This document shows positions 3,741 through 46,967 of a stretch of 48,274 nt of DNA, in pieces. Position 1 is the stretch's first letter. Each line of letters begins with the position of its first letter. Position numbers and translations under genes: made by a program. The stretch is from Parvularia atlantis. Its lineage: Eukaryota. The stretch spans positions 1 through 48,274 of the forward strand of contig CALSCO010000683.1 of NCBI GenBank assembly GCA_943704415.1, given 5' to 3'. Under the pieces are notes generated by a model that had not been told where the DNA came from, ran no database searches, and saw nothing but the letters and a program-made list of their open reading frames with translations.

Positions 3741-6635
3741 TCACTCCTGCGCGCCGAGCTGAGCGATGAGCTCGTCGCAGATCTTGGTCAGCTCGGCGTT
3801 CTCGCGCTCCTTGGCCTCGAGCGACGCCTTGAGCGCCTTGGCCGTCAGGTCCTGCGCGCATCGCGTGAGCCCTGCGGGCCGGCGCTGCCGGCCTGTGCGC
3901 GGCGCACGCACCGACTTGGTCAGCTTGGCGTTGAGCGTTGAGACCTCCTTGTCAAAGTGCGCGCGCACACGCGCGATCTCGACGTTGGCCCTGTGCGCAT
4001 GTCCACGCCGCGTGAGCGGACGATGGCGCGCCCCGAGGTGCGACGCACGCCGTGATCTTCTCCTCCGCGTGCGACTTGAGCACCTCGTAGCGCTTGTGGC
4101 TGTTGCCCAGCTCCTCCTGCAAACCCGTGACCGTCTGGCGCAGCGTCTCGTCGTTCTGCGGCGCGGGGTGTGTCAGCCGCGCAGCCCACGCACACGTACC
4201 CGCGCTGCCTGCCGCGCACCTTCTTGTACGTCTCGATCATCGCCTTGACGTTGTCGTACCGCTCGCGCATCTCCAGGAACGAGCGCTCGACCTCCTGCGC
4301 CTCCTTGGCCTGGTGCGCGCGCGCGCGACGTCCCGTCAACCGCGGCGCGGTGCGGTGCAGGCGACCGCAGCGCGTACCATGCGCGCGTTGTCGGTTGACA
4401 GCGCCAGGATCCGCCGCGCGTCCTCGTCCTTGGAGGCCTTTGTTTGCGCTGGCGCGGCGGCCCCGCGGCTGTCAGGATCAATCACAGCACGCCACGCAGC
4501 ACGCACCGATGATCGCCGCCATCGTCTGCTCGTACTCGTCTACAACCTTTTGCATGCGCTGCGCACGCACGGGGCCGGTCAGCGCTCCGGCGAAGCGCAC
4601 AGACAGCACGCGGACGCACTTTGCGCTGGTCGGCCTCCTGCTTCCAGCGCCGGTCGAGCTCCTGCAGCTCGGCCTGCAGCAGCTCCTTCTCCTTCGCCGC
4701 CTGTGCGCAGCCGCGCCGGGCGTCAGAGAGCAGCGCGCCCGGCGGCCGTAGGAGGCGTGCCTGGTCGCCCATCATCGCCTTGAGGCGCTCCACGTCACGC
4801 TCGGTGTACTTGGGCACCGAGGCCGGGCTGGGTGCCTCGAGATTGACGTCCAGCAGCGACACGACGCGTGTCCCGCCGTGATCTGTGCGCTCGCTCAGGC
4901 GCTGACCACGACAGGCCGGCAGGCGCACCTGGCGTGATCGCTGGCTGAGGCCGGATGAGGCCGGACGACACGGATGGCACTGGCTGACGGCGCATGCACG
5001 GTCAGCGGCGCGTACGGCCCGTGTGCCGCGGCTGCGCACCCTGGGCGTCTCGAAGCCGATCATCCACTCCTGCGTCGCGAGCGGGTCAAACTGCTCAACG
5101 CTCTCGACCGTAGCCGCAGGCAGTTTCTGCGCGAGCACGTCAGCGACTTGGCTGCGCGCGCCAGGCGGTCGCACTGTCTGCGCCTGCTGCTGGGCAGCGA
5201 CGGGCGCGAACGGCGCTGGTGCTGTTGCTGGTGCGGGAGCTGGCGCGAGCACCGCTGCAGCAGTTGGGGCAGGTAGGGGTGCAGGTGTCGGTGCAGATGG
5301 CGGCACGGGTGCCGCGATAGTCACAGCGACCGCCAGCACAGGTTCAGGCGCGGGCTCGGGGACGGGCTCAAACGTGGGCGCGGACTCCAGGACGGGCTCA
5401 GGCGCGGGTTCAGGCGCAGATGGCGCCTCCACGGCCGGCGACGGCGCCCGGTCGGCCACAGGTTCGTCCGGGGCGGGCAACGGCATCAGTGGCGACTCCA
5501 CAGCCGCTGCCTCGCGCCTTGCGAGTGCCTGCTGCGCCCGTGCGCGGATGTCGGCGATCTTGGCGCTCGCGGTGGCCGGCGACAGCGCGGCGCCGCGCTC
5601 AGATGCCCGCTCCGAGGCCTTCTTGGGCGGGTTCTTCATCGATGACAGGACCGGGCGTGCGCGCGGTGGTGCGGCGGCGTTGCCCGGGGCGCCGCCAAAG
5701 TTGATCTCGAGAGCAAAGTCGTCGCCCGCCGCGGTCTCGGCAGGCTCGTCGGACCGTGGTGCCTCTGCGGCGGTTGCCGGCGCCGGGTCTGCGGCCGTGG
5801 ATGGCGCGGCTGTGGGCCCTGCTTTCTCGGCCGATCGTTCGGATGCCTGTGCCGTTGACAGCGTGTGAGTGCGTACAATGCCCGGCTCGGTGCAAGCGTT
5901 CTGACCTTCTTTGGCGGGTTGCGCATTGACGAAAGTATCGGCATGGGCCGCGCCGGCGCGGCGGCCGCCTTGCCCCAGACGATCTCGACCGCCTCGGCAG
6001 GTTCTGCTGCGCTGGTCGCGGGAAGCGTTTGCTCGTCGAAGCTACTCGCCTTGACTGGCAGTGGTTGGTCGTCAAAGCTACTCGTCTTGGGCTTGTTCAC
6101 GGGCAGTGGTTGGTCGTCAAAGCTGCTCGCCTTGACGGGCAGCGGCTGCTCGTCGAAGCTACTCGCCTTGACTGGCAGTGGTTGGTCGTCAAAGCTGCTC
6201 GCCTTGGGCTTGTTCACGGGCAGTGGTTGGTCGTCAAAGCTGCTCGCCTTGACGGGCAGCGGCTGCTCGTCGAAGCTGCTCGCCTTGACGGGCAGTGATT
6301 GGTCGTCAAAGCTGCTCGCCTTGACTGGCAGTGGTTGGTCGTCAAACAAGCGCACGGCCGCGCTCTTGACCGCCCGCCCGGCGCCCGTCGGCGCGTCGTT
6401 CTCGTCCGCCCTGGCCGTCGTGGCCATGCTCTGCTGCAGCGCCGCGCGCACCATCTCCTGCCAGCGCGCGTCAGCAACCCCCGGCCCCCCACGGCCCGCG
6501 CGTGCACGCCTTGGCCATCGCAAGATACACGCGGTCGTCGTCGGCCGGCGCCGCGGCCTCATCCAGCGCCACCGTGCGCTGCGCACCCGCCAGCGCGCTC
6601 TGCACAACGTCCGCCGCCGCACTGTTTGGGTCCAT
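3741..6635 (-). CDS. TACC-domain (transforming acidic coiled-coil) spindle protein with long Pro/Ala-rich N-terminus
   Basis: C-terminal coiled coil ending [27 protein letters not shown], the typical TACC C-terminus; also [24 protein letters not shown] and [13 protein letters not shown]. Confidence 0.8.
6020..6347 (-). repeat. Coding tandem repeat: 9 copies of (KASS)FD[DE]QPLPV, 36-bp units with periodic 45-bp variants
   Basis: Directly visible in the DNA (repeated ggcagtggttggtcgtcaaagct...) and in the translation within the TACC gene. Confidence 0.95.
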
Positions 6636-12690: not shown

Positions 12691-13759
12691 ATGCAACGTG
12701 CCGCGCGCCGTCTCAGCCTGCGCCGACCGCGCCCGACCGCCACCGCCGAGGCCGAGCTCGAGGGGCTTTACGCGGCGGACGCGGGCCCTGCCGAGACCGA
12801 CGTGTGGCGCGGACCGCTGCTCACGCCCGGCCTGGACGTGCTTTTGCGCTCGCGCGCGTACCGACGGGCGCTGCTGCGCGAGCCGGCGGCGCTGGCCATT
12901 TACGTCGACAGCGTGCGCACGACGATCAATGCGGCCACGGGCTTCGACCGGATCGACCACTTGAAGGAGCGCGTGCAGACGCTGCGCACCGAATATGCCC
13001 TGGCCGAGCGCCTCGCGCGCGACTGCCGGCGCGCGTGGACGAACCATGTCAAGCACGAGCAGGAGCTGCGCATCCAGGTCAACATGTCGATGCTCAGCTC
13101 GGGCATCCAGCAGCTGCCCGAGATGCTCCGGCACATTGCCGCTGAGCGCGCCGCCGCCGAGCGCGGCATGCTCGACAGCGAGCAGGCGCGCGAGCTTGCG
13201 CACGACGCGTACGAGCACGCCCAAAGCACGCTGTACCTCGAGGAGAAGCTGTACGCGGAGAAGGTGCGCTTGGCCGGCTGCGCACTGCGGCCGGGCCCTG
13301 ACGGCTCTGTGGGCGCAGGTGCGCAACCTGGGCTTTGTCGCGCAGGCGTGCTTGACAGGGCTCAACGTGGTCATCTTCGTCACCAACGTCATGTGGATGA
13401 TGCCCGCGCGCAACCGCCAGATCGCGCACGAGGTCAACGACGCGCTCGGGCCGCTCCTGCGCGAGCAGACGGCCGCGCTTGAGCACGTCTTGACAGCCGC
13501 CCAGCCCGCATCCGCGCCGCCTCAGCCGCCAGCGGCCCAGTCGACGCCAACGCCAGTGCCAAAACAGCCGCCAGCACAGTTGATACCAACAACGCTCGAC
13601 ACCCGGCTCGACGCGCTCGGCGCACAGCTCGACACGCTGTCTGCCCGGCTCGAGCAGCCCGCGGCGCCCTGGTCGGCGGCGATCGCCGGCTCGCTCAGCG
13701 TCGCTGCGCTGGTCGTTGCGGCGTTCGCGCTCGTGCTGCGACAGGCCGCGGGAACGTGA
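12691..13759 (+). CDS. She9/Mdm33-family mitochondrial inner-membrane coiled-coil protein
   Basis: Arg-rich presequence-like N-terminus; INAATGFDRIDHLK and LYLEEKLYAEKVR...GLNVVIF resemble She9 motifs recalled from fungi; two hydrophobic segments; one intron at 13264-13318. Confidence 0.7.
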
Positions 13760-13817: not shown

Positions 13818-16800
13818 TCACGATTCGCGACGGTTGCTCCGCCGCCCGCCGTCGGCTCGGTCGGGTGTGGTCGGAATGTTGAAGCTGTCGTACGACGTGA
13901 GCGAGGGCACGACCGGCCCGAACGGCGGTGGCGCAGCCGCAGCGCCCGCGCCTGCCGGTCTGTCGCGCTCAAAGTACGGCTGCGCGCTGTCCTCGGGGAC
14001 GGCGGGTATGAGCGGCTCCACGGGCGAGTTGGACCCGCCCGGGAAACGGCGCGAAAATTTCTTGAGCGACCTGGCAAGGCGTTGGCGGCCAATGTGTGAG
14101 CGTGCGCACGAGCAAGTAAAAGCGGCCACGCACCTCTTCAGGTCGTCGTCGCGGTTCACAAAGTAGACAATCACAAAGACGCCGACGATGACCGTCAGCA
14201 GCACAAGCAGCAGGAGCACGATCAGGATCACGCCGCCGCAAGACAGCGACGGGCCGCCGCAGTCTGCCGCGCGTGCGGGCGCGTGAGCAGCTGTAGAGGG
14301 GGCGCCGGGCGGGCGACGCACTCTGCGGACACGACGCGACGTCGCCGAGGCAGTTGGCCGTTTCGCCGCACCAGTGGCAGCTGCCGATCGTGCCGCACTC
14401 GTCCGCCGAGCTCGCGCTGTAGCACGCCTGCTCGAAGCTGTACGTCGCGTCCGAGATGCCGCGGCCGCCCGAGGTGGTCGTAACGATGACCGAGCCGTTG
14501 ATCTGCCCCTGGACCGTGGGCGTGACGCATGTGATGTGTCCCGACGAGATGTACACGAGCGAGTAACGGCACGACACGCCCGCGACTTGCACGTCTAGGA
14601 CGTCGTCGGCCGAGAACCCGAGGTCCTGCCAGCGCGCGCGCACCGTGAGCACGCGCTCACGCTCACGGCGCAGCCCGCGCACCTGGCCGTAGATCTGCAG
14701 CAGCGTGAAGCCGTTGTTCGGGCCCGACGGCGGCGACACCGAGCGGACGGCGGGCAGTGGGTTGTACTGGAAGCGCGTCACGGACGCGTCCACGCCCGTC
14801 CCGGCCGAGCGCGTCGTGACCGTGATCGTGCTGCTCTCGCCCGAGCTGCCGCCGTCGGGGTCCTTGGGCGGCAGCACGCACGACACGGTCGAGCTGTTGT
14901 AGTACGTGAACGTGTCAAAACAGCTTGCCGCGTCCACGGCCACGTCGAGCACGTCATTGCGGTTGAAGCCCAGGCCGTCGCCGTAGATGAACAGGAGCAC
15001 GCCGCCAGACTGCGGGCCGCTCACGGGCGAGACGCTGCGCGTGGTCGGCGGCTCGTTGTAGGTGTAAAGCGTGCGGTTGCGGTCGGCCGGGTTGACCGAG
15101 CCCGTGCTGCGCGTCTCGATTAGCACGGCATCGCGCCGCGGCGACGGCGCGCGGCTGGTGGTGCAGTTGACGCGGCCCTGGTTGATGTAGACCGTGTTGT
15201 TGCAGGTCACGCCTAACGCACGCGCGCGCGACGCGTCATCAGTGCACTGCCCGGCCACGCACCGCAGCACGCACCGGCCACCGTCACGGCGATGATGTCG
15301 TCCAGCCCGCTGCCGAAATAGCTGCCCGAGATCGTCACAAACGTGCCGCCGCCCACGGGCCCGTTGGTCGGCGTGATCGACGTGACCTGCGGCGGCAGAT
15401 TGTAGATGAAGCTGGCCTCGCTCCGGCCGACCGCGCCGTACAGCTTCTCGACCACGACTGTACCGCGCGTCTGCCGCGGAGCACGTCAGCGCGTGGCTCA
15501 CCGCAACGCTCGTGCGTGCGCGCACCGGCACCGGCGACGCGCCCGTGACGCAGATCATCTGACTTGGGCTAATCACGTTGAAGGTGGCGCACTGCACTCG
15601 CAGCTCCGACCCCAGCTCGATGCGGACGTGCAGCACGTCGGCGTTGCTCGAGCCAAAGTCTAGCGCATCGCAGCCGCCTCAGCTCGGCGGCGCGCGACGC
15701 GGAAACGCGCACCGCTGCCGGTGAGCGTGATCGACGTGCCGCCGGCCTGCGGGCCAGACTCTGGCGAGATGGAGCTAATGACCGGCACTGCGCAGCGCTG
15801 CGTGAGCGGGGCTGCCGGTGCAGACGGGGCGCGCGAGGTGCACCCGGCACGTAGGTGAACTGGACGTCGGAGCCGGACCGGCCCGACTGCGGCAGCGTCG
15901 CCACGACCGCGTACATCCCGGCCTGCGCACTCGGCACGTTGGGCAGCGTGCAGTTGATCTGGCCCTGCAGTCGCAGCGGCACGGGGTTGCTGCACGGGTA
16001 CTCGACGCCGGCTGGGCGCGCGCCCGCGTCAGCAGGCGGCGCCAGCGCACAGACAGCGCACGCACCGCCGCTGACAAACAGGATCATGGCCACCGAGTTG
16101 AACGGCGCCGCGCCAAACAGGCCCGTGCCCGTGAGAAGCACGGGGATGTTGCCGCTGACGGGCCCGATGGCGGGCTCCACGCCGAGCACGACGGGCGCTG
16201 TGCGTGGGCGCCAGCGTGAGCACCCACACGCACGCGGCTGCTGAGCCGGCACGCACGCGCGTTGTACGTGTACGTCAGGTCCTCACCGCTGCTGCTGCCG
16301 CCGCCAACTGTCGTGACGACGACGGGCCCGGATGTCTGCGCGCTCGCGATCAGCCGCCATGCGCGGGCTCCGCTGGCCACACGCACCGGCTCTGCCGCGG
16401 CACCCGAGACGCACTGCACGAGCTGCGACGACTGCCACAGCACGGACGTGCAGTCGACGCCGGCGAGCGTCACGCTGGAAACTTCCGCCGCATACTCGCC
16501 CAGGTTGTCGCCTGCGTCACGCGCGTGGGCACCAGGGGGGCAACGCGGCGGCAGACAGGGCACGCACCGGTTATGTTGACGAACGTGCCGCCGGCGCGCG
16601 GCCCGTTGTCAGGGCTGACGCTGTCGATGATGGGCGGGAGCGCGACGTAGGTGTACTCGTCCGTGCTGTTGGCCTCAGCGCCCGTGCGCAGCCGGACGGT
16701 CACAATGCCGCTCGTGCCCGCCTCGACCGCGCCCGTCCTGCACTCGATCGTCGTATCGTTGCTGACACGCGCCTCCTTGCAGGGCACGCTCGCGATGAGC

Positions 16801-17108
16801 ACCGCCTCCAGCTGCAGCGTCGAGCCGAAGCCTGGGTGGGCGAGGGCGCTGAGTGTGATGCCTGCGCCGCGTCAGGTGCGCACGCACCCGTGCCGCGGAC
16901 GCTCAGCGCGGTGCCGCCCGCGATCGTGCCCTGCGTCGGCGCGAAAGACGAGACGGCGACTGCGCACGAGGGGCCGGTGAGCGCCGGCGAGCAAGCGGCC
17001 GCGCAGGGGGGGGGGGGGGGGGGGGGGGGGGGGCCGAAACGCACGCTGTGCGCGGACGGTGACAGCGGCCGCGGCCACAACGGCAAGGCACGCGATCACC
17101 GCGCGCAT
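13818..17108 (-). CDS. Type I membrane protein: signal peptide, 7 IPT/TIG repeats, PSI-like Cys knot, TM, ~80-aa cytoplasmic tail
   Basis: Seven PxIxSIxPxxGPxxGGTxxxIxG starts (e.g. PQVTSITPTNGPVGGGTFVTISG); CYSASSADECGTIGSCHWCGETANC; TM ILIVLLLLVLLTVIVGVFVIVYFV. Confidence 0.85.
17006..17033. repeat. G28 homopolymer inside the first intron of the IPT gene
   Basis: Direct count of the G run; lies between a GTGCG donor and a CGCAG acceptor on the minus strand. Confidence 0.9.
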
Positions 17109-17929: not shown

Positions 17930-22483
<4,554 letters not shown>

Positions 22484-27077: not shown

Positions 27078-28735
27078 TCAGTACGCGTCCGGCAGCGGGC
27101 GCGACACTTCGTCCTGTACCAGCCGGCTGAACGCCGCGTCGTCCGCGAGCACGTCCTCGGACCAATCCCAGCCGTACCCGTTGGTGAGCAGCCCGGTCAG
27201 CGACACGCCCAGCGCCGACGCCATGGCCTGGTCGAGCCAGTGCATGACCGACATGCCACTGACGTCGTAGATGACCTTGTTGGTCACCCGCAACCGCGCC
27301 CACCACCTGCGGGGCGCACGTGCGCGCGCGCGCGAGGTCGGACGGCCATGACGAGGGCAGGTTTCCGCGCGTGCCACGCACTGCGGGCCCGAGACCGGGT
27401 TGCACATCTGGTAGAACGCCATCGGGTCCGGCTCACCGCGCCCCTGCCGCACCGGGTCGAGGTTGTACACGAAGACGAGCGAGCGGCGCACGGCATCGGC
27501 CGTGGCGCCTGTGTGCGTGCGCGCGCGGGAGCGGGGGATCAGCCGTGCCGCGACACGCACGGCCGCAGCACGCACCGGCCGCGCACGCGTACACGCCGCT
27601 GGGCAGGAACACCTGCAGCTGGCCGGCCGGGCTCTCGCTGATGTAGTGCTGCGCATTGGGCAGGCCCGCCATGGGGAAGTTGATGCCGCCGCCGTCGGCC
27701 ACGTCGTTGAGGAACAGCGCCGCGGTCACGAGCTGGTTAATGCCGCGCGCGAGGCCCGCAAACGCCGGCGTGTCGCCCTTGTGCATAAAGTCGCTGCGGG
27801 CCAGCGGCCGGTCACGACAGCCGCACACACGACGGCCAGCGAGCACGGCGCACCGCTCCGGGGCCACGGTGCCCTTGCTGCGTGTCTGGCGCGCGCGCCG
27901 CATGACCACGAAGCCGTCGTGCATCTCCATCAGCCGCGGCGGCAGGCGCAGGAGGTCGCCGATACGGTCTGCCACGTCGCTCGTCACCTGATCGTCGGCC
28001 GCGGGGACGTGCTTGGCCTCGTTGAGCATGTAGTACTTGGCTGCACGTCGCTCAGTGGCGGCGGTGCGCGCGTGTGTATCGAGCCCCACGCACGCGTATC
28101 CGAGATGTTGCTCAGTTTCTTGATCGCCTCGGTCTCGGCGTCGGTGAGGAAGTCGAGCACCCGAAAGGCCTGGCCGCGCGTTCGACAGGGTTGAGCGGCG
28201 CGCGTACCAGGCCGCCGAGGGCGCACCCGCGGGCGCGTTGAGACGGTGCGGACGACGAACGACTGGCCGCCGGCGACCGTGACCGTGCGCTCGTAGCCCA
28301 CGTGGAAGGGCGGGTAGACAAAGACGTCGCCGCGGCGGACGAGCACGAGCGAGCCGTGCGAGAGGCGGAGGCACTCGCGCACGTCGCGCACGAGCCGCCC
28401 GTCAACGGGGTCGTGCAGGTCGAACACAAACGACACGCCGTCGTCGTCCAGCAGCCCCAGGCGGTGCGCGACGGCCGTCACGGACGCGTTGAGCCGCGCC
28501 GCGTTGGCCTCGTGCAGCTCGACGTAGAACTGCGGCCCAGCTGCGCGCGCACACGTGCATCAGCGGCGCAGGCGCAGGCGTGGGCGCGGGCGCGCGCACG
28601 GTCGCCGTTCGGGATGAACCGGCAGATCAGCCGCGCGGGTGCGCTGGCGCGGGCGCCGCACGCAACCAGCACGGCCGCCAGCAGCGTGCCGAGGACCGCT
28701 GGCGCGGCGGCAGCTGTGAGGAGCCGGCGTGGCAT
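27078..28735 (-). CDS. Secreted prolyl-4-hydroxylase-like (2OG-Fe fold) protein, apparently lacking the catalytic His residues
   Basis: Signal peptide MPRRLLTAAAAPAVLGTLLAAVLVACGA; VRTVSTRPR|AFRVLDFLTDAE, VADRIGDLLRLP and TAALFLNDVADGGGINFP are P4H-family motifs. Confidence 0.72.
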
Positions 28736-33593: not shown

Positions 33594-35129
33594 CTACTTT
33601 GCAGTGAAACCCGTGCTGCTCTCGTCACTGCCGCGCTGGATGTAGTGCCGGTTGCGCTGCACGCGCTCGGCCATGCTTGCGGCGTCGTCGGCCGTGTACG
33701 CCTTGCGCTTGACATCGCTGGGCAGCGTGCGCGTGCACATCGTCAGCAACGCGAGAGCTGCCGCGGCCGTGTCCGCACCGCAGAAACTCGGCGTCGGCGT
33801 CGCTGTGCCGCTTGGACGCCGTCAAGCGCTGCGCCTCAGCCTCCTCGCGCTGCATGTCCTCCTCGAGCTGGCGCTGGCGCTCGGCGGCGTGCCACGTCGC
33901 GCCAGCCCGCATCGCCGCCAGCCGCGCCTCGCGCTCCTCGGCGGTCAGCGCGGGCTTCCGCGCCACGGGCTCGCGCTGGCTGTGATGGCCGTTGGCTTGC
34001 CCGTTGGCGTGTCCGTTGAGGACTGGACGGTCGTGCTCGCGGTCACGGCTGCTGTGCGGGCGCTCGTGGTCACGGCTGCTGTGCGAGCGCTCGTGGTCAC
34101 GGCTGCGGTCGCGCTCTCGGCTGTGGTCGCGCTCTCGTCCCCGGTCGACCTCGCGCTCACGCCCGCGGTCGACATCGCGGTCGCGTCCACGATCAGCCTC
34201 GCGCTCACGCCCGCGGTCAAACTCGCGCTCACGCCCGTGCTCCACCTTGCGCTCGCCTCCCCTCGCAACGTCGTCATCAGAAGCGCTGCTCGACTCGTTG
34301 TCGCTGCCGCCCGACTGCGCACGCTTGGCCGCCTTCTTCTTCTCCTTCTTCTCCTTCTTCTTGGCCTTCTTCTCGCGGCGCTGCTTCTCGCTCAGCTGCG
34401 CAGCGTCATTGCCAGAGCGATCAGCACACGACAGTTCACACAATCTACGGCGCACCTCGCGCAGCTGCTTCATGCGGATCGGGTTGTCGAGGATCTCCTT
34501 TAGCGACATCTGCTCGCGGCGCTTGATCTGCAGCATCGGATCCTCGCGGACCTTGTTCATCGCGTCGCGGTCCTTGCGGTCGCCGCCGGCGGTCGCGAGC
34601 GACTCGGGCACGACGGCGAGCTTGCGAGGTGCGCGCGTCATCGTCGTCAACACGGGGCGGCCGCGCAAGCAGCCTGGACGCACCCCCGTCGCGCTGCTGC
34701 CCGCGCCCTCGGGCTGGTCCACGCGGCGCTTGCCCAGCAGGTACTCCTCTTGAATCTCGGACGGGTTCTGCACTGACGTCGCGTACATCCAGTCGAGCCG
34801 GTCTGAGCGTTTCCTGCCGCGCCCGGCGTCAGCACCCCGCCCCACGCTCACTCACGCGCACACGCCGCACGCACTTGACCTGGCCGGACTTTTCCAGGCT
34901 CTGCTGCATCTCGGCCAGCTGCCGCTCCTCGGCCAGCTCACGCTGCAGCTGCGCGAGCTTCTTCTTCTCATCCTCGGCTTTCTGCTCGGCCTTCCACACG
35001 CGCTCGAGGTTGCTGAACGTCTGCGTGTGCCAGCTCTTCTTGAGGTTCTGCGGCGCGGCGCGGCGTGGCGCGGCCGTCAGCGCGCAACGCGGGCCAACGC
35101 GGCGAACGCACCAGGTCGCCGCCACCCAT
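33594..35129 (-). CDS. CWC25: Pre-mRNA splicing factor Cwc25
   Basis: MGGGDL|NLKKSWH, RLDWMY, EEYLLGK and KVREDPMLQIK; R/D/E-rich low-complexity C-terminal half. Confidence 0.95.
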
Positions 35130-35300
35130 GATGGCGTTCAACTCTAAAGGGTAAATACAAAAAACATACCAACCCGCCGCCGTCACGCATTCCCCGCCAT
35201 GATGGCAAGAGTGGCTGTCCACCCACGCACTTACGCCATGATGGGATATGCATACGTACGCGCACGCGCGCGGTGCAAGGCCTACTCAACTCGAAACTCC

Positions 35301-36978
35301 ATGCGCTCCACTCGAGCCGCCGCGCTGTGCGCGCTGTGCCTGGGCGCCCTCGCACTTGCGCCCGATGCGCGCGCCATGGCCGTGTTCTACCGCAACGAGC
35401 ATGCGCCGAGCGCCGTGGCGATGGAGCTGTTCCTCGGCGACGCCCCGCTCGGCGTCGACGTCACGCTCGCCCGCTGCGCCGTCGCGGGCTGGTGGTGGGC
35501 CGCCCTGCCCGAGCTGCCCGCGGTCTCGGCCGCGCGCTTCCGCTACATCGACGGCGCCGGCACGCTCATCTACGACAAGAGCGCGGACGTGCACCGCCCG
35601 CTCGACTGCACGTCCAACACAACCGACAACCTTTACCCGGTCGATCGCCGCGTCGCCGCCAACCATGCGCTGTACGTCTACCACTACGGCGGCTCGGGCT
35701 CGCTGCCGTGTCGCAACGGTGACGTGAGCGTCTCGCACGGTGTGCTTTCCCGCGCACGCACGCGCGTCCGGGCGCGTGTTCCTGACGCGCGGATCGGTGC
35801 TGGGTGATCGCCGCAGTCATCAACCGCCACACGTCGCAGTTCCTCGGCTGCGCCGCCCCGACCGCCTTCTACTACCGGTGCGCCCGGCCGCCCCGGCTGC
35901 GCCTACTCCGTCGTGCTTATCGCGACGCGCGTGCAGCAACCCGGCCATGCACGCTGACGCGAGTGTCGCCGCCGTGCGCCTCGACCTGTACTCGGCCTCG
36001 TCCGCCCCGCTCGGCTCGTTTACTCTCAGCCGCTGCACCGCGTTCGACGAGTACTTTGTCGGCCACGTGCTGCCGCCCGCGAGCCCGCCGGATGTGCGCG
36101 TCGCCGTGACGGCCCTGGACGGGTCGAACGTGCGTGTGCGCAATTTATGCGCCCGTTCTCACGCGGCCCGTCGGCGACAACAGGGCGTGCTGCACATCGA
36201 CGCGGCGTCGTGCTCAAGCCTCCAGCCGTACTCGGGGGTGCGTCTCTGCCGCTCCGGCGCCACGCGCGCCGTGTCTTGACGCCCGCCAAACGCAGATCGA
36301 CTTCACGCGCCCAGGCAACCTGCTCAACTCGGACGCGGGCTGCGGTGCAAGCGCCGTGACGCAGTTCGAGGGGCAGTTCACGTCCAGCCTCGATGAGTGT
36401 GCGAGCGCGTCGTCGCTCGCCGGCGCGCAGACGCAGTTCTACTACCGGTGCGCGCACAAGGGGGAATATTTCGCAGATGGCGGCGGGTGAGGATTGACAC
36501 GCGGTGCAGCCACAAAAACTGGTGGGCGTCGAACAACGTGCTGTCAGTCGTCGTGCGCGTCACGCACCCTCTGCGCGGCACCACCGACATCGTCCTGAAC
36601 AAGTGCCCGACGAGCGGCTACTTCACCGCGCGCCTTAGCTTTCCCGGCGCGCCCTCGTCCGACGTGACGCTGCTGCCCATTGCATACCGCGGCGCCGATG
36701 GTGCGTCCCTTGCGCGGCTGCGGCGCACAGCTGACCTGCGCGGGAGCGCAGACACCGGCACTGTCTATGCCACCGACTACGCCAGCTGTAGCGGCCGCGA
36801 CCCGTATCGCAACGTGCGCGCTTTCCGCCGCCGCGACGACCGCCGACTGAGCAGACGCGTACAGGTCATCCGCTTCGCGTCGCTCACGAACCTGCTGAAG
36901 AGCAGCAGCGACGAACAAGACGAGGATGATGACGACGGCGAAGACGACCAGAGCACGCTGCCGCTGCCCACGGAGACG

Positions 36979-37011
<33 letters not shown>

Positions 37012-40000
37012 AACGGCAACGGCAACGGCAACGGCGGAAACAACGGCAACGGCAACGGTAACAACGGCAACAACGGCAACGGCAACAACGGCAACGGGAA
37101 CGGTCGCGGCGGCAACGGCAACGGAACCAACAACACGTGCGGCAGCAAGGCCTCGCAGCCGCTTTGTGCGTTCGGGCAGGATTTTGAACAGGCGCTGACT
37201 CGCCGCTCGCGCAGCTTCGTCGTTTGACAGCAGCTGCGCCGCCGTCATGACCACGCGTATCCAGTACATGTGCGTTCGCAGCCGGCCGCACGGTCGCTGA
37301 CCTGTGCGACGCACACCAGGAACCCTGCATGGACGGTGACGCTGCCTGCGCTCGCTGAGGTGGCCGTCTGGACGTACTCGAGCGACGGCAAGGTCGTCTA
37401 CGCCACGGCACTGCAACGTATCGGGCCGGCGTGCTGGTCCGGGCCCGTCACGGCCGCCACATCCACGCCCGCCAAACAAGCGGTGCGCTGGCGCAGATCG
37501 GTGGCCGCAGTGCGCTCACCTGCTGGCCGTCGCAGGCGGTTCTTGTGGCGTACGACGCCGCTGGCAACGTCCTCGCGTACGACACGCCCACCTGCCAGAG
37601 CACGCCATCACCCGGCCGGACCTACGTGGTGCGTATTCTGCTCTGCCAGCGCACTGATGCACGAGGGTTGACGTCGCTTGTTGCACGACAGTTCAACTTC
37701 ACCCGCACGCTGACTGTGCTAGACTCTGCGAACGGCCGCGGCTGCGGCGGCAGCGTCTCGAGCGGTGCGCTGCGAGCGCCACACGGCCGCTGGCGGCAAT
37801 GCTCAGGCTGCTGCGCCGCGCAGACGTGGTCGTCTCCTGCCCCCTGTTTGACGACGTCATCTGGCCCACGCAGGCGCCCAGCGACGGCCCAACGGGCGCG
37901 CCCAGCACCGTCCCAACGACCTCGCCAAGCGGCGTCATCCCCACGCCCAGCAACGCGCCAACAGACGCGCCAACGGACGCGCCTACTGAGTCGCCGACCG
38001 ACGCGCCGACCGAGCAGCCGACCGACGAGCCGACCGACGAGCCGACCGAGACCCCGACCGACGAGCCGGCCGAAACCCCGAGGCCGTCGCCAACCAGCGA
38101 TGGCGCGCTCTCGTCCGCCCAGGTCGCGGCGATCGCCAGCACGACCGTGGGCATCGTGCTGCTCGTGATGCTCGCGCTGCTCGTGATGCTCATGGTCAAG
38201 CGGCGGCGGCTGACCACGTCGGTGATCGACATGTCCGAGCTCGGGACCGGCGCGGCACCGCACGACAGCCCTGCGCGACTGTACGAGGCGGCGCGCACGC
38301 AGGCGATGGCCCAGGGCGTTCCGCTTCTGGCCTACCGCGACGCGCGCGGGTGTGGCCTGCTGCACTACGCCGCCATGGTCGGCGACAGCGCGACGATTCA
38401 AAGGCTGCTCGGACCGAACTCGACCATCTACGTCGACCAAACCCCGCGGATGCTGCACGTAGCCATCGACGCGTCCGACACCCAGGGCAACACGGCGCTG
38501 CTGTGGGCAGCGCAGGCGGGGCACGTCGCGGTCCGTGAGCGCAGGTGGCTGCTTGTTTGCTGCGCTGACCGTGCTCTCGCACCCGTGCACAGGCTGCCAG
38601 CGTCCTGCTCTCGTACGGCGCCAACGTGTCTTCGTGCAACGCGCGCGGCGAAACCGCTCTGCATCTTGCCTGCCGTCAGGGCCACAACCAGGTGCGCTGG
38701 CGCACTTTTTTTCTTGTCTGTGTGCCGCTGCTCAGTGCCGCGCTGCCGCCGCAGATGGCCATCTTCCTGGCGCAAAACGGCGCGCTGGTCAACGCGCGCG
38801 ACAGCGAGGGCCGCACGCCGCTGTACAGCGCGTGCCTCGCGAGGGCGTCGGCCGTGCCCGTGCTGAACTTCCTCGTGCGCGGCGGCGCCGACGCCAACCT
38901 GCCCGACAACACCAACACGACGCCGCTGATGGCCGCGACCATGAACGGCAACGACGCCGTCTTCAACTTTCTCTTCACGCAGGGCGTGCAGGTCGACGAC
39001 GCCAATCTGCACGCGGGCAACACCGCGCTGCACTGGGCCGCGGCCACAAACAACAAGAACGCGCTGCACCAGCTGCTCTCCGTAGCCTCGCCCATCCCCA
39101 TCACGCGGCCCCTGCGACCGACCGCCGCGCTCGCGCTGCGCCAGATTCTCGAGCTCAATGGCCAGAACAAGCGCGGCGAGACGGCCCTATTCCTCGCAGC
39201 GCGCGAGGGCCACGAGCGCGCTGTGCAGATGCTCCTGCAGTCCAAGGCCGACGCCTCAATCCCCGACAACCAGGGCCGGACACCGCTCGACGTCGCACTC
39301 GCCAATCAGGTGCGGCGCTCGCGCATCCGCCTGTGCCGCTCGCTGCTCACAGATGCACACGTGACCACGCGCACAGCAGCAGAAGGTCGTGGCCATCCTG
39401 CGCGCGGCCACGCGATCCATGCCGCCCCCACCGGAGCAGCCCCGCGACTTTGGCAGCCGCACCTCGTCCGTGTCGAGCATGCGACCGCTCCTGTCGTCGT
39501 CGCCCGCCCGTGCCGACAACGCCAGCCTGCGAGCGCTCGCGTCGTCTTCCTACGAGCCGTGGCCCGCCCCGCCGCCCGCCGTGACCGACGTCGTGCGCCA
39601 AGGCAGCAGCTGGCTGCAGCTGCCGGCGCAGTGGACGACCGTGGCGACGAGAGCGCTGAGCATGCAGGCCGCGCCTGTGCCTCCGGCCTTGGCCCCACCG
39701 CGTCCCAAACAGCAGCAGCAGCAGCAGCAGCAGATGCAGCAGCAGCAGCAGCAAATGCAGCAACATCAGCAGCAGCAGCCGGTCTGGACCCCGCAGCGCT
39801 GGCTCAGCACGCTTGCGCCGCCTGCGATGACAGCCAGGTTACACCATAGCGCCGGCGACGCCGCCGGCGACGAGAGCCGAGCGCCGCTCCTGAACAAGAC
39901 GTCGACGCCGACGTCGCCGACAGAGTGCATTTGCGGGCGCGCAGCGTGGTGCCGCGCTCACACGTGTCTTGCGCCCAGCCCGCGCGCGACGTCGTCCTCC

Positions 40001-40444
40001 GAGTCGGCCACCGTCGCCTCCGAGGACCGCACGCTCTCGCCGTACAGGTACGCGCGTCTTGCCCTCGTTCTGCGCATCGCCTGATGCGCCCGCCACAGCC
40101 AACACTCGTCATCGCTGTCGCCCGGCGTCGGCGTGTCGCCGTCCGGCAGGTGCGCCGCGGCTGTGTGCGTGTGTGTGTGCCGGCATCGCTCACGCAATGC
40201 GCGCGCGCAGGAACCCGTCCGAGCTGTTTGTGGGCCACGTGCACGCCGACATCGACATGTTTGAGGGCTTGCACGTGCTCGACACGCAGGTGCGCCCGCC
40301 GCACTGGTTTCGGCCGGCCCCAACGAGTCGCAGCAGGCGCCGCCGGCACCGCAGCCCGAGCAGACCGAGCAGACCAGCGACGAGCTTGCAAACGTCTTCC
40401 TTAACAACGCCAACGACTCCCTGTTTGACAACGACTTCAGCTGA
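35301..40444 (+). CDS. Single-pass receptor-like protein with novel repeat ectodomain and Notch-like intracellular ankyrin domain
   Basis: Signal peptide; 4 Cys-containing ~110-120-aa repeats; acidic and NG tract; Pro/Thr stalk; TM GIVLLVMLALLVMLMV followed by KRRR; about 8 ankyrin repeats; polyQ; Ser/Pro/acidic tail. All exons join in frame through GT-AG introns. Confidence 0.82.
36978..37134 (+). repeat. (AAC GGC)n / AAC microsatellite-like tract encoding an Asn-Gly linker
   Basis: Direct reading: NGNGNGNGNGNNGNGNGNGGNNG... Confidence 0.92.
39709..39778 (+). repeat. CAG-rich polyglutamine tract
   Basis: QQQQQQQQQMQQQQQQMQQHQQQQ in frame downstream of the ankyrin repeats. Confidence 0.92.
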
Positions 40445-40537
40445 TACGCGGCGCGCGCTAATTAGGCCTATTGATCTTGTACATTATTGGCAGCGCCGCC
40501 GGGCTCGCAACGCACACACGCGCGCACTCACTCGCCT

Positions 40538-43500
40538 TCACGCCCCGCTGCCGCCCCCGGTGCCGCGCGGCGGCCGGTACATCTTGGGCAGGGAGAGCGT
40601 CTGGAGGTAGTTGAACGCTGTGTGCACAAGCGACACGGCTCAGCGGCCGGGCGAGCGTGCATGCGGCGGCCCCACACACACCGTAGCGTGCCGTGCCCGT
40701 GTTCTTCTTCACGTTCTGCAGGCGCACTCCCTGGCTGCGCATGGCGTCGCGCAGCGTGTCCTGCAGGTCGGGGCTGAGCTTGTGCGAGAAGCGCAGGAGC
40801 AGGATCTGCCGCGCGCGCCCGGGGCGTGAGCGTGGACCGCCGTGCGCAGCCAGCGGCCACACCTGCTCCAGCGTGATCGCCATGGACGTGCGGTCTTTCG
40901 CGCTCTTGCAGCTCGTCAGGCGTCCGCCGTTGAGCCTGCCGCGTCGTCAGCGTCAGGCCGAGATGCAGCGCGCGGGCAAGAGACGTACAGCCGGGTCAAG
41001 CGCTCAGCCAGCGTGAGCATTTCCGTGTTTTTGATGCGCTTCGAGTTGCTGATGGCCGTCTGCAGCTCCTTGGTCGTGTCCTCGAGCTGCTTTGTGCGCA
41101 GCTCCACAAACTTGCTCGTCAGCAGGCCCGTCTCGCGCAGCCACGAGCGGAAGCTTCGTCTTGCGGTGAGAGGCGCGCGGGGGGCGCCGCGGCGCATGCT
41201 CGCGCGCACTTTTTGATGTAGAGCCGCAGCAGCGCGAACGACTGCGTGTTGATCAGGTCCTGCAGCGTCGTGTCGCCGACCGCGTTGGCCACCGTCTGCA
41301 TCTCGTTGATGCCCTGTGTGAAGATGACCGGGTAGACGTCGATCAGCTTGCTCTGCGGAGGTGCAGATGAGCATGACACGTCACGGCCGCGACCAGCGCG
41401 CACCGCCTGCAACTCCTCCGGCAGCAGGTCAAAGGCCGCCTGCGGCAGGAACACGACGATCACGAGCGCGTCGGGCGTGCCTTGGAAGTCGAAGAAGCTC
41501 TGGGACGGCCTGGACGTGCCGGCCGGGAGCACTGTGCGCGCGCGATGAGACGCCGCCCGCCGTCCCGCGGAGTACCGCACCGGTCTGTTCGAGCGCGAGG
41601 CGGATGCGCACGGTCGAGAGCTCGCGCACGGCGACGTACATGTCCTCGAGCATCCCGTTCTCGTCGCCCTGCGTGCTCAGCAGGCTAGCGGGCGAGCGGA
41701 CGCGTCATACACGGCCGCGCGGCTGCATCCGGTGGCTGCATCGCACCTCTCAAAGTGCGCAAGGTAGCCCGTGCGGCTCAGCTGCTCCAGGTACGGCTGA
41801 TCCGTGATGCGGTTGCTCAGGTTTGAGGCGAAGATGCTCACCTGCAGGGCGCACGCGCGCGCGCGCGTGAGGACGCTGTGCGTGGGCGCGGGGGCACGAA
41901 CCAGTGCCGTCAGCGCCTGCGAATGTACGGCCGCGAGGCGCATGCGCAGCGACAGGTGCGACAGCGAGCACGCGTCCTCCTTGACAAACTGGCGCGGCGC
42001 CGGTCGTGTGAGCGCGCCCTCGCGCCCGCAGCCGGCCGCGCACATTTGCGTTGAGCTCGGTCTGCACCAGCAGCGCCAGACGCTCAAAGTTGCGCACGAG
42101 CGCGTCCAGCGACGTGATGAACGACTCGTGCGTGGCCGTGCCGAGCGTGCCGTCGGCCACGTTCTGCACTGCGCTGTAAAACGTCGGCCAGGACGTCTTG
42201 GACACGCGCCCGGCGATCGACAGGGCCTCCTCGGAGATGTTTTCGATGCGCTGCGCCTGCCTGGACCGCGGAGCCGCAGAAAAGGGCAGAGTTCAGCCAC
42301 GTACGCGCGCGCAGCTGCAATGCGCACGCGAGGATGTGGTGCACGGCGATGTACATCTGCGAGCGCGCACGATCGAGCGCCGCGAGCCGTGCGGCCTTGT
42401 CATCCGTCTTGGCGGCCGCGCGGATATCTATGTTTGCGGCGCCGTTCAGGGCCGCCAAAGGGGACACCGGCGCGCGCACCGTCCACGAGGCTGCCGAACG
42501 TCACGACGGCCTCCACGGCCGCGAGCCGCTGCGACCGGTACGAGTTGTGCGAGCGCGGGAGCACGGAGCGCGGTGCCGGCGGCTCCTCTGCAGAGGGGCG
42601 ACGGCTCAGGAGGCAGGCATGGGAAGCAGGACGCACGATACTCACCGGACGCGAGCGACGTCGCCGACAAGCTGCTGCTGGCGTTGGTGCCGAAGAAGAG
42701 GCTCGGCATGGTGGCCGCCTGCGGCTGGCCGGTCGACGAGCTCGTGTCGCGCATGAAGCCTTCGCGCATGTCGGCCGTGAGCGCGACGAGCGACCGAACG
42801 ACGTGCGACGCACCGGCCATGCGCGTGCTCATGCTCTTGAGCGCGCTGTACATCGACGACGAGCGCTGCTCCTTGACCGCGGGCTCGGCTCCGCCGGCCG
42901 AGAGCTTGGCGTCATCGTCGGTAACGTCGCGGCTGGCCTGCGCCTCGAGTAGCGAGCGTAGACCGCCCTTCTTGAAGCCGTAGCCGTGCGCGCAGGCGGC
43001 GCCAAAGGTGACGCAGTCGTACACAAAGTCTGCGATTGTGACGCGACTACATGAAACGACCGCACGCGGCCGCGCGGCCACCGGCTGGCGCACTGCCGTT
43101 CTGCTGGCCGTCGCTCACGATCAGGTTCTGGATGTGGCAGTTGAGCGCGATGAACTGCATGTCCTCGCCCTTCTTGGACGTGGACGGCCGGAAGCTCTTG
43201 CCCGTGTACGCCTCGAGGTTGCTGCAGCAGGAGAGCTGTCAGCGCGCCCACCAGCCCCACGTGGCCGTGCGCACGCTAGCGCGTTCTTGAAGTTGCTGAG
43301 GAGGCGGCAGTGCAGCTCGATCTGGCGCTTGCGCACGCTGTCGAGGCCGCTCGGAAGGTGGTCCGGCACGCTGTGCCGCCCTGGTGTCAGCCGGTGCGCG
43401 CCTGCGCGCAGAGGACGCCACCTGTCGAGGTCGCGGATGAGCGTCTCCTCCTCGGCGCGAAGGAAGCGCAGGTAGTGGATCGGCACAATGAACGTCCACG

Positions 43501-45538
43501 GGCTCTCGAAGATGGTCTACACGCGCTGTCAGACGGGACGCAGACACGGACGCGCGCACAGCGCCGTCGCACCTCGCGCACGCGTAGCGCCCGGCCGGTC
43601 TCGGTCGTGACGCGGTACGTTTGCTGCTGGTACTCGAAGCGCACGCGCGTAATAGGGCACACGGTGAACGCGCCTAGCGTGCGGTTGTCCTCGCCCTCGA
43701 CCGGCTGGCGGCGCGCATCAGCCGCGCGCAGAGGCGAAGGCCGCACGCGCCGCACGCACGTCCATCGGCTTGAGAACGATGTGGCCGGCCGGGTCGGTGC
43801 CTTCGGCCGCGCGTCCGTCGCTCTGGAGCTGGAGTGGCGGCCGCGCCCCGGACGCTACCGTGCGCCGCCACGTGTGAACGCACGCCACAGTGCGCATGCG
43901 CGCAGTGTTTTACTCTTGATCTGCATGATCTCGCTCGACGTGATCAGGCCCTCGCCCCACAGGCGCACCTTGTCGTTCTCGACGTCGTCGATCCGCAGCA
44001 GCGCGATCTTGAACTGCTGCATCTGGTTGATGTTGTGCAGCTGCACCGACACGACAAAGTCGACGCTGAAGATTTGCTGCGGCGTGCATGAGCACCACAT
44101 GCTTGTGCGCGCGCGCACACTCGCACCCGTTGCTGCGTCTTCTCGGTCGCGGTGGCCACTTCCGTCCGTCCGACGGTGACCCAGTCGCGCACGACCGAGT
44201 CGAAGCGCGTGACGAGGATCTTGCCACGCCGCGTGAGAGGCGTAGCGAGCGGGGGCAGGGCTTGGCAAACCTGGAAGTCAAACACGTCGTACGCGTCCTT
44301 CTGCTCGGCCGAGCGCGTGACCGTGGCGCTGAACGCGACGTCGATCGTACTGCGTGGCGTCGGGCGGTGTCAGCCGCGTGCCGGCGATCCGCTGGCGCCG
44401 ACCTCCCCGGCTCGATGTCGTCGCGCACAAACGACGCAAAGACGGGCGCGGTCACGGGCGTGCTGATGGCAGCCGTGGGCGGCGGTACGGACGGCGCCTG
44501 CTGCGTTTACGCACGTCAGGAGCAAACCAGCGAGGCGCACAGGGCAGCGCAACGCACGCCGGGCTTGATAAGCGATTTGAGCAGGCCGCCGACGCCGCTG
44601 GGGCTCTGCTGCGGCAGCTGCATCTGCGTGCACGCGCGCTGTCAGCGTGCACGTGCCACGCCGGGGATGGCGGCAGTGCGGCGCACGTCGGTGCCGTCGT
44701 CGTCGTCCCCCGGCGCCTCCAGCCCCTGCGCGTCGCTGCTGTTTCGGCCAAACGTCTGCGCATCGTCCGCGTCGCTGTCGCCCGCCGCGTCCTCCTCCTC
44801 GTCCGAGATCATCTGCCGCAGCGGGCTGTGCGACTGCGCGGGCGCACGGCGTCGGTAATCAGCGAGGCAGCCAGGCGGCGGGCGCACGGCCGAGGGCGAC
44901 AAGGTCGGCACGTCGACCTCGCGGTCGCCGGCGTCCATGCTCGACTTTGACGAGTCTGTCGCATCGGCCTCCCCGGCCGCGCCGCCGCCGAGCAGGCGCT
45001 TGAGGCGTTCGACCTCGGCGCGCAGCTGCCGCACGGTCTCGCGCACGCGCACGTAGGACGCGTTCTGGAGCGCGGCGGCCCACGCGAGCATGTCCTCGCT
45101 GCGCACGCGCGTGCGCACCGTGAGCACACTGGCCCTGTGCGGACGTGCGAGGGCACACCGGTCGCGGGCGAGCAGCAGGTACGAGCGCGAGGCCGGCGTG
45201 CCGAAGGTGATCGAGAGACCAAACTCGACCACCTCGTCGCGCGCCTCGCTCACGCTGCAGTTCTCGAGCAGGATGAACCCGATCGGGTCCTGGTCGCTCT
45301 TGGACTGGAAGTAGAACAGGACGTTGCCTGCGCGGTCGCGTGCGCGCGCAGAGTGGGGGTGGGACGGCGCCGCGCTTGAGTCTCACGAGCGCGCGCTCTG
45401 TTTGGACGCACCTTTGAGCACGAACCAGCGCTGCTTGAACGACGGGTTCGTCTCGCCCTTCTTCTGCAGATAGCCCTCGCGGTCGCGGCCACGCGGCGAG
45501 CGCGCAAAGTACGCGACGTCGCGCTCGTTGTAGCGCAT
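40538..45538 (-). CDS. Inositol polyphosphate 4-phosphatase (INPP4) with N-terminal PH + coiled coil and a C2-like region
   Basis: Catalytic CX5R motif LTSCKSAKDRTSMAITLEQ, FTQGINEMQT and MRSQGVRLQNVKKN; N-terminal PH domain (EGYLQKKG...KQRWFVLKGNVLFYF). Confidence 0.92.
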
Positions 45539-45654: not shown

Positions 45655-46967
45655 ATGCGGGACGTCGCCGACTTCCTCGCCTCGCTCGGGCTGGGCCAGT
45701 ACGAGAAGGCGTTCGCGGACGAGGGCTTTGACAGCGTCGCGGCCCTGCTGACGATCACCGAGAGCGACCTGGCGGCGATGGGCGTCAAGCTTGGTCACCG
45801 CCGGCTGATGATGCGCGCCATCGCGACGCTCGCGAGCAATCCGGCGGCGCGGCGGGGCGGCGGTGCGCTGTGCGCGGCTGCGGGGTGTGCGGGCGCGCTG
45901 GCTGATACAGCGGCGCCCGGTGTGTGTGCAGATGCCGTCTGCACGCCCGCGGGCACGCTCGAGGGCGGCGTGTTTGGCGCGCCGTTCGCGGTCGACGCGT
46001 CGCTGCTGGCGTCGGCGATGCACGGCCCGAGCGGGCTGATGGGCGCGCACATGTGGCAGGTGCACGCGCCCGGGCAAGTACCCGCACCTGCGCCCGCGCC
46101 CGCTCAAGCGCCCGCTCAAGCGCCCGCGCCCGCCCAAGCGCCCGCCGTTACGCCGAGCGGGCCCGCAACATTCGTGTTCTCGGTGTCGCCGCAGCACCGC
46201 GAGATGCAGATCACGCCGCTGCCGGTCGCGATCGAGGGTGGCGTCATTTCGGGCGGGGTCGAGGCGAGCATCCGCATGAAGCGGCGGTACCGGCGGCGGC
46301 CCAAGCGCGACGAGAACGCGCCCGAGCGGCCACCGTCGGCGTACTTTATGTTTGCGAGCCGCATGCGCGAGGAGCTCAAGCAGGCCAAGCCGGAGCTGCC
46401 GTTCACGGAGATGGCGCGGAACATCGGGCAGCGGTGGCGCGCGCTCAGCCCGGAGGAGCGCGCCGAGTACGTGCAAGCGGCCAACCGGGCACACGCCGAC
46501 TACACGGAGCAGCTCAACCGGTACCGCCAGTCGGACCTGTACCGGGTGCGCGCGCACTGTCCGCACATCCGCGTGCCTGGGCTGATCGATTGCGCCAGAG
46601 CTACCAGCAGTACATGCTCCAGTTCCGCGAGGCCGAGGCCGCCGCGGGGCGCGCCACGAAGCCCAAGCGGCAAGCGCGGAACCGCATCTCGTTCGTGTCG
46701 ATGGGGCCCGCGTCGCCCGGCCGCGCGCAGTCCCAGTCGCCGCCGCCCGAGCCGCCTTCGTCGTCGTCCGAGCTGGACGAGCCCGACAGCGTGCGCACGG
46801 CGGCCGCGCTCGCGCCGCGCGCGCGCTGACGACCGCGCCACCGGCAGGCCGGCACGCCGATCGCCGCGCGCAAGGCCGTCCAGGCGCACCACGTCCAGCA
46901 CCACGTCCAGCACCACGTCCAGCACCACGTCCTCTGGCTCGACGAGACCATCAGTGGGCGACGATAG
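45655..46967 (+). CDS. SAM domain + HMG-box protein
   Basis: [23 protein letters not shown]...MGVKLGHRR (SAM); [25 protein letters not shown]...IGQRWRALS (HMG). The stop is 46967 if the last intron is spliced, otherwise 46829. Confidence 0.88.

Follow-up and report, generated by a model that had tools for sequence, protein, structure and literature searches.

Notch relatives outside animals have been recognised through their LNR domain architecture, a criterion chosen on the ground that ankyrin repeats carry too much noise for BLAST or tree building, as one account of these proteins puts it (PMC6040629). Those described in unicellular animal relatives are two LNR-TM-ANK proteins (TM, transmembrane segment) of Capsaspora, CAOG_00333 and CAOG_06027 (PMC3753549), one LNR-bearing Notch-like protein of Monosiga (PMC2770060), two proteins of Ministeria that combine a Notch domain with ankyrin repeats and are upregulated together with RBPJ in aggregation (PMC13366479), and a Mylnosiga Notch with the order EGF-LNR-TM-ANK (PMC6040629). 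Recognition by LNR means that a receptor with Notch-type ankyrin repeats and no LNR would be overlooked, and we found no report of one in the portion of the full-text literature covered, most subscription journals lying outside its scope. Here we describe such a candidate, encoded at 35301..40444 on contig CALSCO010000683.1 (assembly GCA_943704415.1), whose 48,274 nucleotides (nt) are referred to as the window. One transcript carries an ectodomain, a transmembrane segment, an ankyrin block and a tail in that order, with Notch-specific residues on one face of the ankyrin block and with no EGF, LNR, NOD or RAM.

Gene structure and transcript

The receptor gene is real and gives one spliced message, with the following extent (aa, amino acids).

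35301..40444, plus strand: whole receptor gene, 20 exons and 19 introns, 1350-aa type I membrane protein

The start ATG lies at 35301, the last base of the stop codon is 40444, and the 19 GT..AG introns measure 47-77 nt each. A single 4615-nt contig of sequencing run X1 spans 35239-40617 and includes all 20 exons, with 0 mismatches across the 8 listed pieces; run X1 is only guessed to be RNA, and its contig nonetheless skips the introns. Fifteen of the 19 exon joints (14 + 1) are seen directly in the contig alignments, and the last four were accepted because the spliced model length of 4288 coincides with contig position 4288. A contig of run X3 shows no break over the receptor-gene stretch aligned. 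Since the X1 contig joins all exons, it carries those of the ectodomain together with those of the ankyrin block, which removes the possibility, raised in a preliminary description of this DNA, that the two exon sets were separate transcripts. The features listed in that description, from signal peptide to acidic tail, were each found in place, and it had missed the lack of a RAM WxP motif, an exonic 20-aa insertion and an extra ankyrin repeat. In our hand-built first model the insertion had been treated as an intron (39082-39144), which was rejected because the segment is retained in the transcript contig. Run X2, a lake-water metatranscriptome from another study, contains near-identical pieces (289 nt with 2 differences and 216 nt with 1), one of the two being unspliced. 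A search for paralogs in X1 and X3 gave just short matches (up to 37 nt) at 80% identity, a search that divergent paralogs could escape.

Comparison of the ankyrin block with Notch

The receptor has eight ankyrin repeats in total, of which the last seven correspond to those of Notch.

38333..38416, plus strand: extra N-terminal ankyrin repeat (ANK0), intact, found with Pfam and repeat profiles
38468..39412, plus strand: ankyrin repeats 1-7 (ANK1-7), aligned in register with the seven repeats of Notch, the signal being strongest in ANK5-7
39082..39141, plus strand: 20-aa insertion between ANK5 and ANK6, intron-like, yet retained in the transcript contig

The insertion is missing from all 6 Notch proteins aligned. 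For each repeat we set the score on a Notch repeat profile against that on a generic profile, using the receptor block's own best generic matches as controls. Practically no background repeat matches Notch repeats 5 and 6 as well as ANK5 and ANK6 do (share 0.000), ANK7 matches Notch 7 at a share of 0.001, and ANK3 does so modestly (0.015). The summed ANK2-7 score is reached by 0/1187 control windows, and for ANK5-7 the receptor scores 29.8 against a control maximum of -10.2 (0/2060 windows reach it); these zero counts are unchanged in all four pseudocount settings. When the repeat by which the Notch set was gathered is omitted, the ANK2-5 score is likewise reached by none of 1697 control windows, and non-Notch windows that bear the same motif reach the receptor score in 0/47, 0/43 and 0/23 cases. 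The collinear assignment of receptor repeats to Notch repeats is the best of 20160 orders. Gap-free similarity to the 4 complete Notch blocks is 236, 236, 238 and 201, the best of 116 controls giving 203. Among PDB structures, Notch1 is the top named natural short ankyrin domain in the best 60 rows for two queries, and with a third query ZDHHC17 is the one natural protein that ranks above it. The score, the collinear order and the alignment over ANK1-7 thus bear out the proposal that the block is Notch-type and in register, with a strong signal in ANK5-6 and a weak one in ANK1-4, and we regard it as likely homologous to that of Notch.

The motifs on which the resemblance was originally noticed are all present and carry unequal weight. 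In a set of 120 generic ankyrin proteins, 90 contain GRTPL, 23 contain TTPLx(x)A and 11 contain GETxLHLA; HWAAAxNN and FLAAREG occur in 1/120 each and in that respect do exceed the generic consensus, as had been claimed, although FLAAREG alone is not diagnostic. The Notch references were gathered by a FLAAREG/FFAAREG motif scan of metagenomes that returned at least 115 loci. Of the 115 listed, 71 have the exact peptide, 56 of those with a Notch-type tail, and most of the loci without such a tail are unrelated ankyrin proteins, many belonging to one bacterial-looking family; 5/6 long Notch candidates scanned have LNR, NOD or NODP domains. This abundant bacterial-looking family (L008, L011, L018, L045, L059, L065 and others) carries consecutive TALMWAAA and TPLFFAAREG repeats that mimic Notch ANK5-6. 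A WAAA/FFAAREG motif by itself therefore proves little; on the Notch profile the family falls far below the receptor.

Six trees were built, and the receptor block adjoins Notch in all of them with varying support. It stands alone beside Notch in three, with a FastTree value of 0.24, a Shimodaira-Hasegawa approximate likelihood ratio test (SH-aLRT) value of 58, and SH-aLRT 91.8 with ultrafast bootstrap (UFBoot) 95 for the receptor + Notch clade in a tree that used the 20 closest controls. The block falls outside the animal Notch clade (SH-aLRT 96-100).

Transmembrane segment and tail

Three further elements complete the membrane anchor and the cytoplasmic part.

38126..38209, plus strand: single TM helix (aa about 714-737) followed by KRRR, with no WxP RAM motif after it
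39710..39778, plus strand: polyQ tract (23 aa, 20 Gln), read from the sequence
39890..40441, plus strand: Ser/Thr/Pro-rich segment, then an acidic-hydrophobic C-terminus, from sequence composition

The only 19-residue windows above a hydropathy of 1.6 fall at the TM helix, where the value peaks at 2.84, and the receptor thus has a single TM helix with a juxtamembrane basic cluster, as in Notch. This cluster had been offered as a sign of Notch affinity; it is indeed present, but KRRR after a TM helix is common among type I membrane proteins. The tail is 33% Ser/Thr/Pro, and its last 75 aa hold 12 Asp/Glu, 1 Lys/Arg and 14 large hydrophobic residues. Such an acidic-hydrophobic composition is typical of activation domains, and the polyQ tract together with this predicted tail fits one.

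The ectodomain

The ectodomain is composed of four units of about 125-135 aa with 4 Cys apiece, set on a Pro/Thr-rich stalk.

35301..35375, plus strand: predicted signal peptide (aa 1-25), with a basic start, hydrophobic core and A-x-A end, read from the sequence
35376..35851, plus strand: ectodomain repeat 1 (R1; aa 26-158, 4 Cys), modelled residues 1-73 forming a beta-sandwich
35858..36400, plus strand: ectodomain repeat 2 (R2; aa 161-284, 4 Cys), from repeat-to-repeat alignment
36431..37237, plus strand: ectodomain repeat 3 (R3; aa 295-492), split by a low-complexity loop, from repeat-to-repeat alignment
36904..37137, plus strand: acidic and Asn/Gly low-complexity insertion in repeat 3 (aa 398-475), exonic in the X1 piece 36865-37165
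37250..37840, plus strand: ectodomain repeat 4 (R4; aa 497-618, 4 Cys), from repeat-to-repeat alignment
37862..38104, plus strand: Pro/Thr/Asp/Glu-rich stalk (aa 626-706), Pfam PT repeat E 1.3e-9

Repeat alignments give z 7.2 for R2-R3 and z 5.7 for R2-R4 (0/1000 shuffles each), the other four pairs being weak (z 1.6-2.8, with R1-R2 at 2.5), and the starts of R2, R3 and R4 share the position of a phase-2 intron. A word search found no relative of the ectodomain at E up to 10 among 7996 candidates, and nothing convincing came from Pfam, NCBIfam or PDB sequences. A profile search with 64 positions, covering the N-halves only, against 1.84 billion representatives returned 4 matches, which were set aside as spurious because each adds up brief stretches of similarity within tandem repeats that are unrelated. 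The description of the ectodomain as unrecognised thus holds for every library searched, and that of EGF, LNR and NOD as absent holds too: neither Pfam (9 exon-bearing frames) nor our own profiles on the spliced protein detected EGF, LNR, NOD or NODP. Our LNR profile, which was built from 3 LNR sequences, finds nothing in the receptor, and the Cys spacing of the ectodomain is unlike that of LNR. The absence of NOD/NODP weighs little, because these models also fail on sponge and choanoflagellate Notch, as described (PMC6040629).

Repeat 1, modelled from a 6-row alignment, folds as a beta-sandwich with a mean predicted local distance difference test (pLDDT) score of 57 (60-74 over residues 1-70); folding of the ectodomain from the single sequence gave a pLDDT of 35. 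The top structure matches of the repeat 1 model are Ig-like, often carbohydrate-binding modules (CBMs), the best reaching Z 5.5 and Foldseek E 0.08, which is not significant. This weak model suggests that the ectodomain repeat is an Ig-like beta-sandwich. With CBM25, 26, 48 and 56 and with FnIII the receptor shares a beta-sandwich in the confidently modelled part of repeat 1, and it differs from them in having no sequence match (Pfam, PDB) and 4 Cys per unit. A CBM25/26 identity for the repeat was considered and is conjectural.

The conserved ankyrin face and a proposed mode of action

On the concave face of the ankyrin block, 12/24 Notch-conserved positions are identical in the receptor against 2.9 expected (P 2e-6), and on the outer helix 0/12 are. 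In Notch the concave face is described as the RBPJ-binding pocket (PMC9118731), and ANK repeats 2-7 are reported to contact CSL (PMC8229355); its conservation here suggests a conserved partner. A residue-by-residue account of the contacts between ANK and CSL did not turn up in the literature covered. ANK alone is reported to work in C. elegans (PMC3410904), and published surveys trace CSL back to the opisthokont ancestor and presenilin back to the last eukaryotic common ancestor (PMC2770060, PMC6792448).

We tentatively propose, at somewhat less than an even chance, that this predicted single-pass receptor is a membrane-tethered transcriptional co-regulator that is released by proteolysis and binds a CSL-type partner without RAM. 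The four repeats, presumed to be disulfide-bonded beta-sandwiches on a mucin-like stalk, would sense a surface or glycan ligand. Shedding within the stalk, then gamma-secretase cleavage, would free the intracellular domain, KRRR would act in its nuclear import, the conserved concave face would bind the CSL-type partner through ANK alone, and the polyQ tract and acidic-hydrophobic tail would serve as the activation domain. The receptor may either predate LNR and RAM or have lost them. The bolder version, in which it keeps a pre-Notch state with ANK-only signalling to CSL and without RAM, LNR, EGF or Mastermind, under new beta-sandwich sensor repeats, seems unlikely.

Alternative explanations

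Release as a co-regulator has a number of points to its disadvantage, and several of these would fit a receptor that has a Notch-family ankyrin block and stays uncleaved, acting as an adhesion molecule or surface sensor whose ankyrins scaffold a cytoplasmic partner at the membrane. The xWxP of RAM, found about 10 residues past the TM helix in 6/6 Notch proteins (as WFP), is absent, the sole WxP of the receptor sitting in the tail. Pfam and our own profiles detect no LNR/NOD switch, the ectodomain has no furin site, no second basic cluster follows ANK, and the tail yields neither a TPxx[STE] degron nor a match to a Notch PEST-core profile (made from 2 sequences only). Many CBMs are found among the weak fold matches of the ectodomain, and many sensors are built as a lectin-like head borne on a Pro/Thr stalk. 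The fungal surface sensors and signalling mucins Wsc1, Mid2 and Msb2 have an extracellular head, a Ser/Thr/Pro stalk and a single TM helix, and Msb2 is shed; to our knowledge none of them has an ankyrin intracellular domain. The face comparison behind the proposed partner used position classes from DARPin design that were picked after the alignment had been seen. As for CSL binding, RAM is reported to give most of the affinity of the Notch intracellular domain, whereas ANK by itself requires a very high concentration to bind and, in vertebrates, the help of Mastermind (PMC3410904), which is described as metazoan-specific (PMC2770060); presenilin is reported lost in fungi (PMC2770060, PMC6792448). 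A polyQ and acidic-hydrophobic C-terminus would nonetheless fit a transcriptional role better than an uncleaved scaffold, and conservation falls on the face to which RBPJ is described to bind. We consider such a scaffold a serious possibility, if on balance a slightly less probable one than release.

A second explanation is convergence: an unrelated receptor would carry a generic ankyrin array close to the consensus, which came to resemble Notch ANK5-6 independently. Homology with Notch is indeed not favoured by every measure. ANK1, ANK2 and ANK4 are not distinguished from background, ANK1 matches 0/3 and ANK7 0/2 Notch-specific positions, and for ANK2-4 alone 25/2060 controls reach the receptor score, the Notch profiles for repeats 1-3 having been built on 4 unique sequences. 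The receptor block scores 7.6, against 135-244 for held-out complete Notch blocks. In raw alignment five generic ankyrin proteins (319) lie above the best Notch (260), and six Notch blocks rank the receptor 1, 6, 10, 15, 26 and 38 of 128; raw alignment and a Notch hidden Markov model are uninformative here, since the match is broken up by the insertion and any repeats close to the consensus obtain high scores. Neither Notch nor a close ortholog appears among the best 120 of 2468 homolog matches (proteins up to 2000 aa), which are swamped by poly-ankyrin proteins, and the bacterial-looking family shows that consecutive WAAA and FFAAREG repeats can occur elsewhere. The trees place the block beside Notch, as reported above, with unstable support: three of the six trees put one control inside the clade (SH-aLRT 69 and 13, FastTree 0.93), and the rows left out IkB, Bcl-3, Swi6 and the described non-animal Notch-like proteins. 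Convergence would still have to produce a score that no control window, motif-bearing ones included, reaches, a repeat order collinear with Notch, and a block placed, like that of Notch, behind a TM helix and before a polyQ and Ser/Pro tail, and we think it unlikely.

An animal-like ankyrin block could also mean that the sequence is an animal contaminant, was recently acquired from an animal or is a chimera of the gene model; this is highly improbable, given that all exons are joined in one contig, that the gene has 19 short introns and a third-position GC content (GC3) of 0.89 in a window of uniformly 65-75% GC, that the block falls outside the animal Notch clade, and that near-identical pieces recur in the lake-water run from another study.

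Neighbouring genes and the host

The window is gene-dense and its introns are very short. Upstream of the receptor gene, with about 170 nt between its start and that of the receptor, lies a head-to-head gene for a CWC25-like splicing factor (33625-35131, minus strand; Pfam Cir_N). Cir_N is named for the CBF1-interacting co-repressor CIR, and the adjacency is probably a coincidence. Tail-to-tail with the receptor gene lies what we take, from its translation, to be an INPP4-like phosphatase gene (40458-44348, minus strand), into which the receptor's transcript contig extends (40617 and beyond). The gene at 13848-17038 (minus strand) encodes a second single-pass receptor, with many IPT/TIG domains (Pfam TIG, 3 frames scanned), a hydrophobic TM-like segment and a short tail. 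The product of 45661-46817 (plus strand) combines a SAM domain at its N-terminus with an HMG box, an architecture familiar from fungi. Further genes encode a She9/Mdm33-like mitochondrial protein (12733-13702, plus strand; Pfam E 2.4e-4, barely below the cut-off), a P-type ATPase that is Na/K-class-like as read from translations (18274-22208, plus strand), and a multi-exon product with good coding scores, whose scanned exons match nothing in Pfam or NCBIfam (27081-28535, minus strand).

Among the neighbours of the receptor gene are presumably fibrillarin, Cullin-1, a Wee1-like kinase, a TACC protein and CWC25, names partly assigned by us from the translations. The named matches of Cullin-1 are early-diverging fungi at 60-67 bits; human CUL1 scores higher on the same query (71-74), and a fungal placement of the host on this basis was dropped. 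Fibrillarin (human 142, yeast 130) does not discriminate lineages. The host is likely a single-celled, non-animal eukaryote and, on slender grounds, looks like a non-animal opisthokont.

Relation to Notch and implications

With animal Notch and LIN-12 (loci L061, L069, L080, L036 and L010; PDB entries 2f8y and 2f8x) the receptor shares type I topology, a basic cluster directly after the TM helix, seven ankyrin repeats in register that include the signature residues of ANK5-6, and a Gln- and Ser/Pro-rich tail. It lacks their EGF, LNR, NOD/NODP and RAM WxP, gives no match to their PEST core, has the ANK5/ANK6 insertion and an intact ANK0, and has diverged much further than any of the Notch proteins sampled. 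The proteins of Capsaspora, Monosiga, Ministeria and Mylnosiga are likewise receptors, or receptor-like, with ankyrin repeats; compared by description only, they have LNR (and in Mylnosiga and Monosiga also EGF), whereas the receptor has four unrelated repeats instead. Because these Notch-like receptors with TM and ANK were already described, calling the present one an undescribed pre-metazoan signalling system was an overstatement. What is new relative to them is the missing LNR together with an ectodomain of its own. The predicted protein belongs neither to the Notch family by the published definition nor to the LNR-bearing Notch-like group, and it likely shares the intracellular module of both.

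For the question of how Notch was assembled, the receptor suggests that the intracellular module can pair with other sensors. With outer repeats that have no relative in the libraries searched, it may show Notch-style signalling before the usual sensor and docking parts. It offers a concrete protein for asking whether ANK-CSL coupling preceded RAM and Mastermind, and whether in non-animal organisms, too, a receptor acts upstream of CSL. If the proposed mode of action is true and the host is an opisthokont of the fungal branch, with which its markers are compatible, the link from receptor to CSL would date to the common ancestor of animals and fungi.

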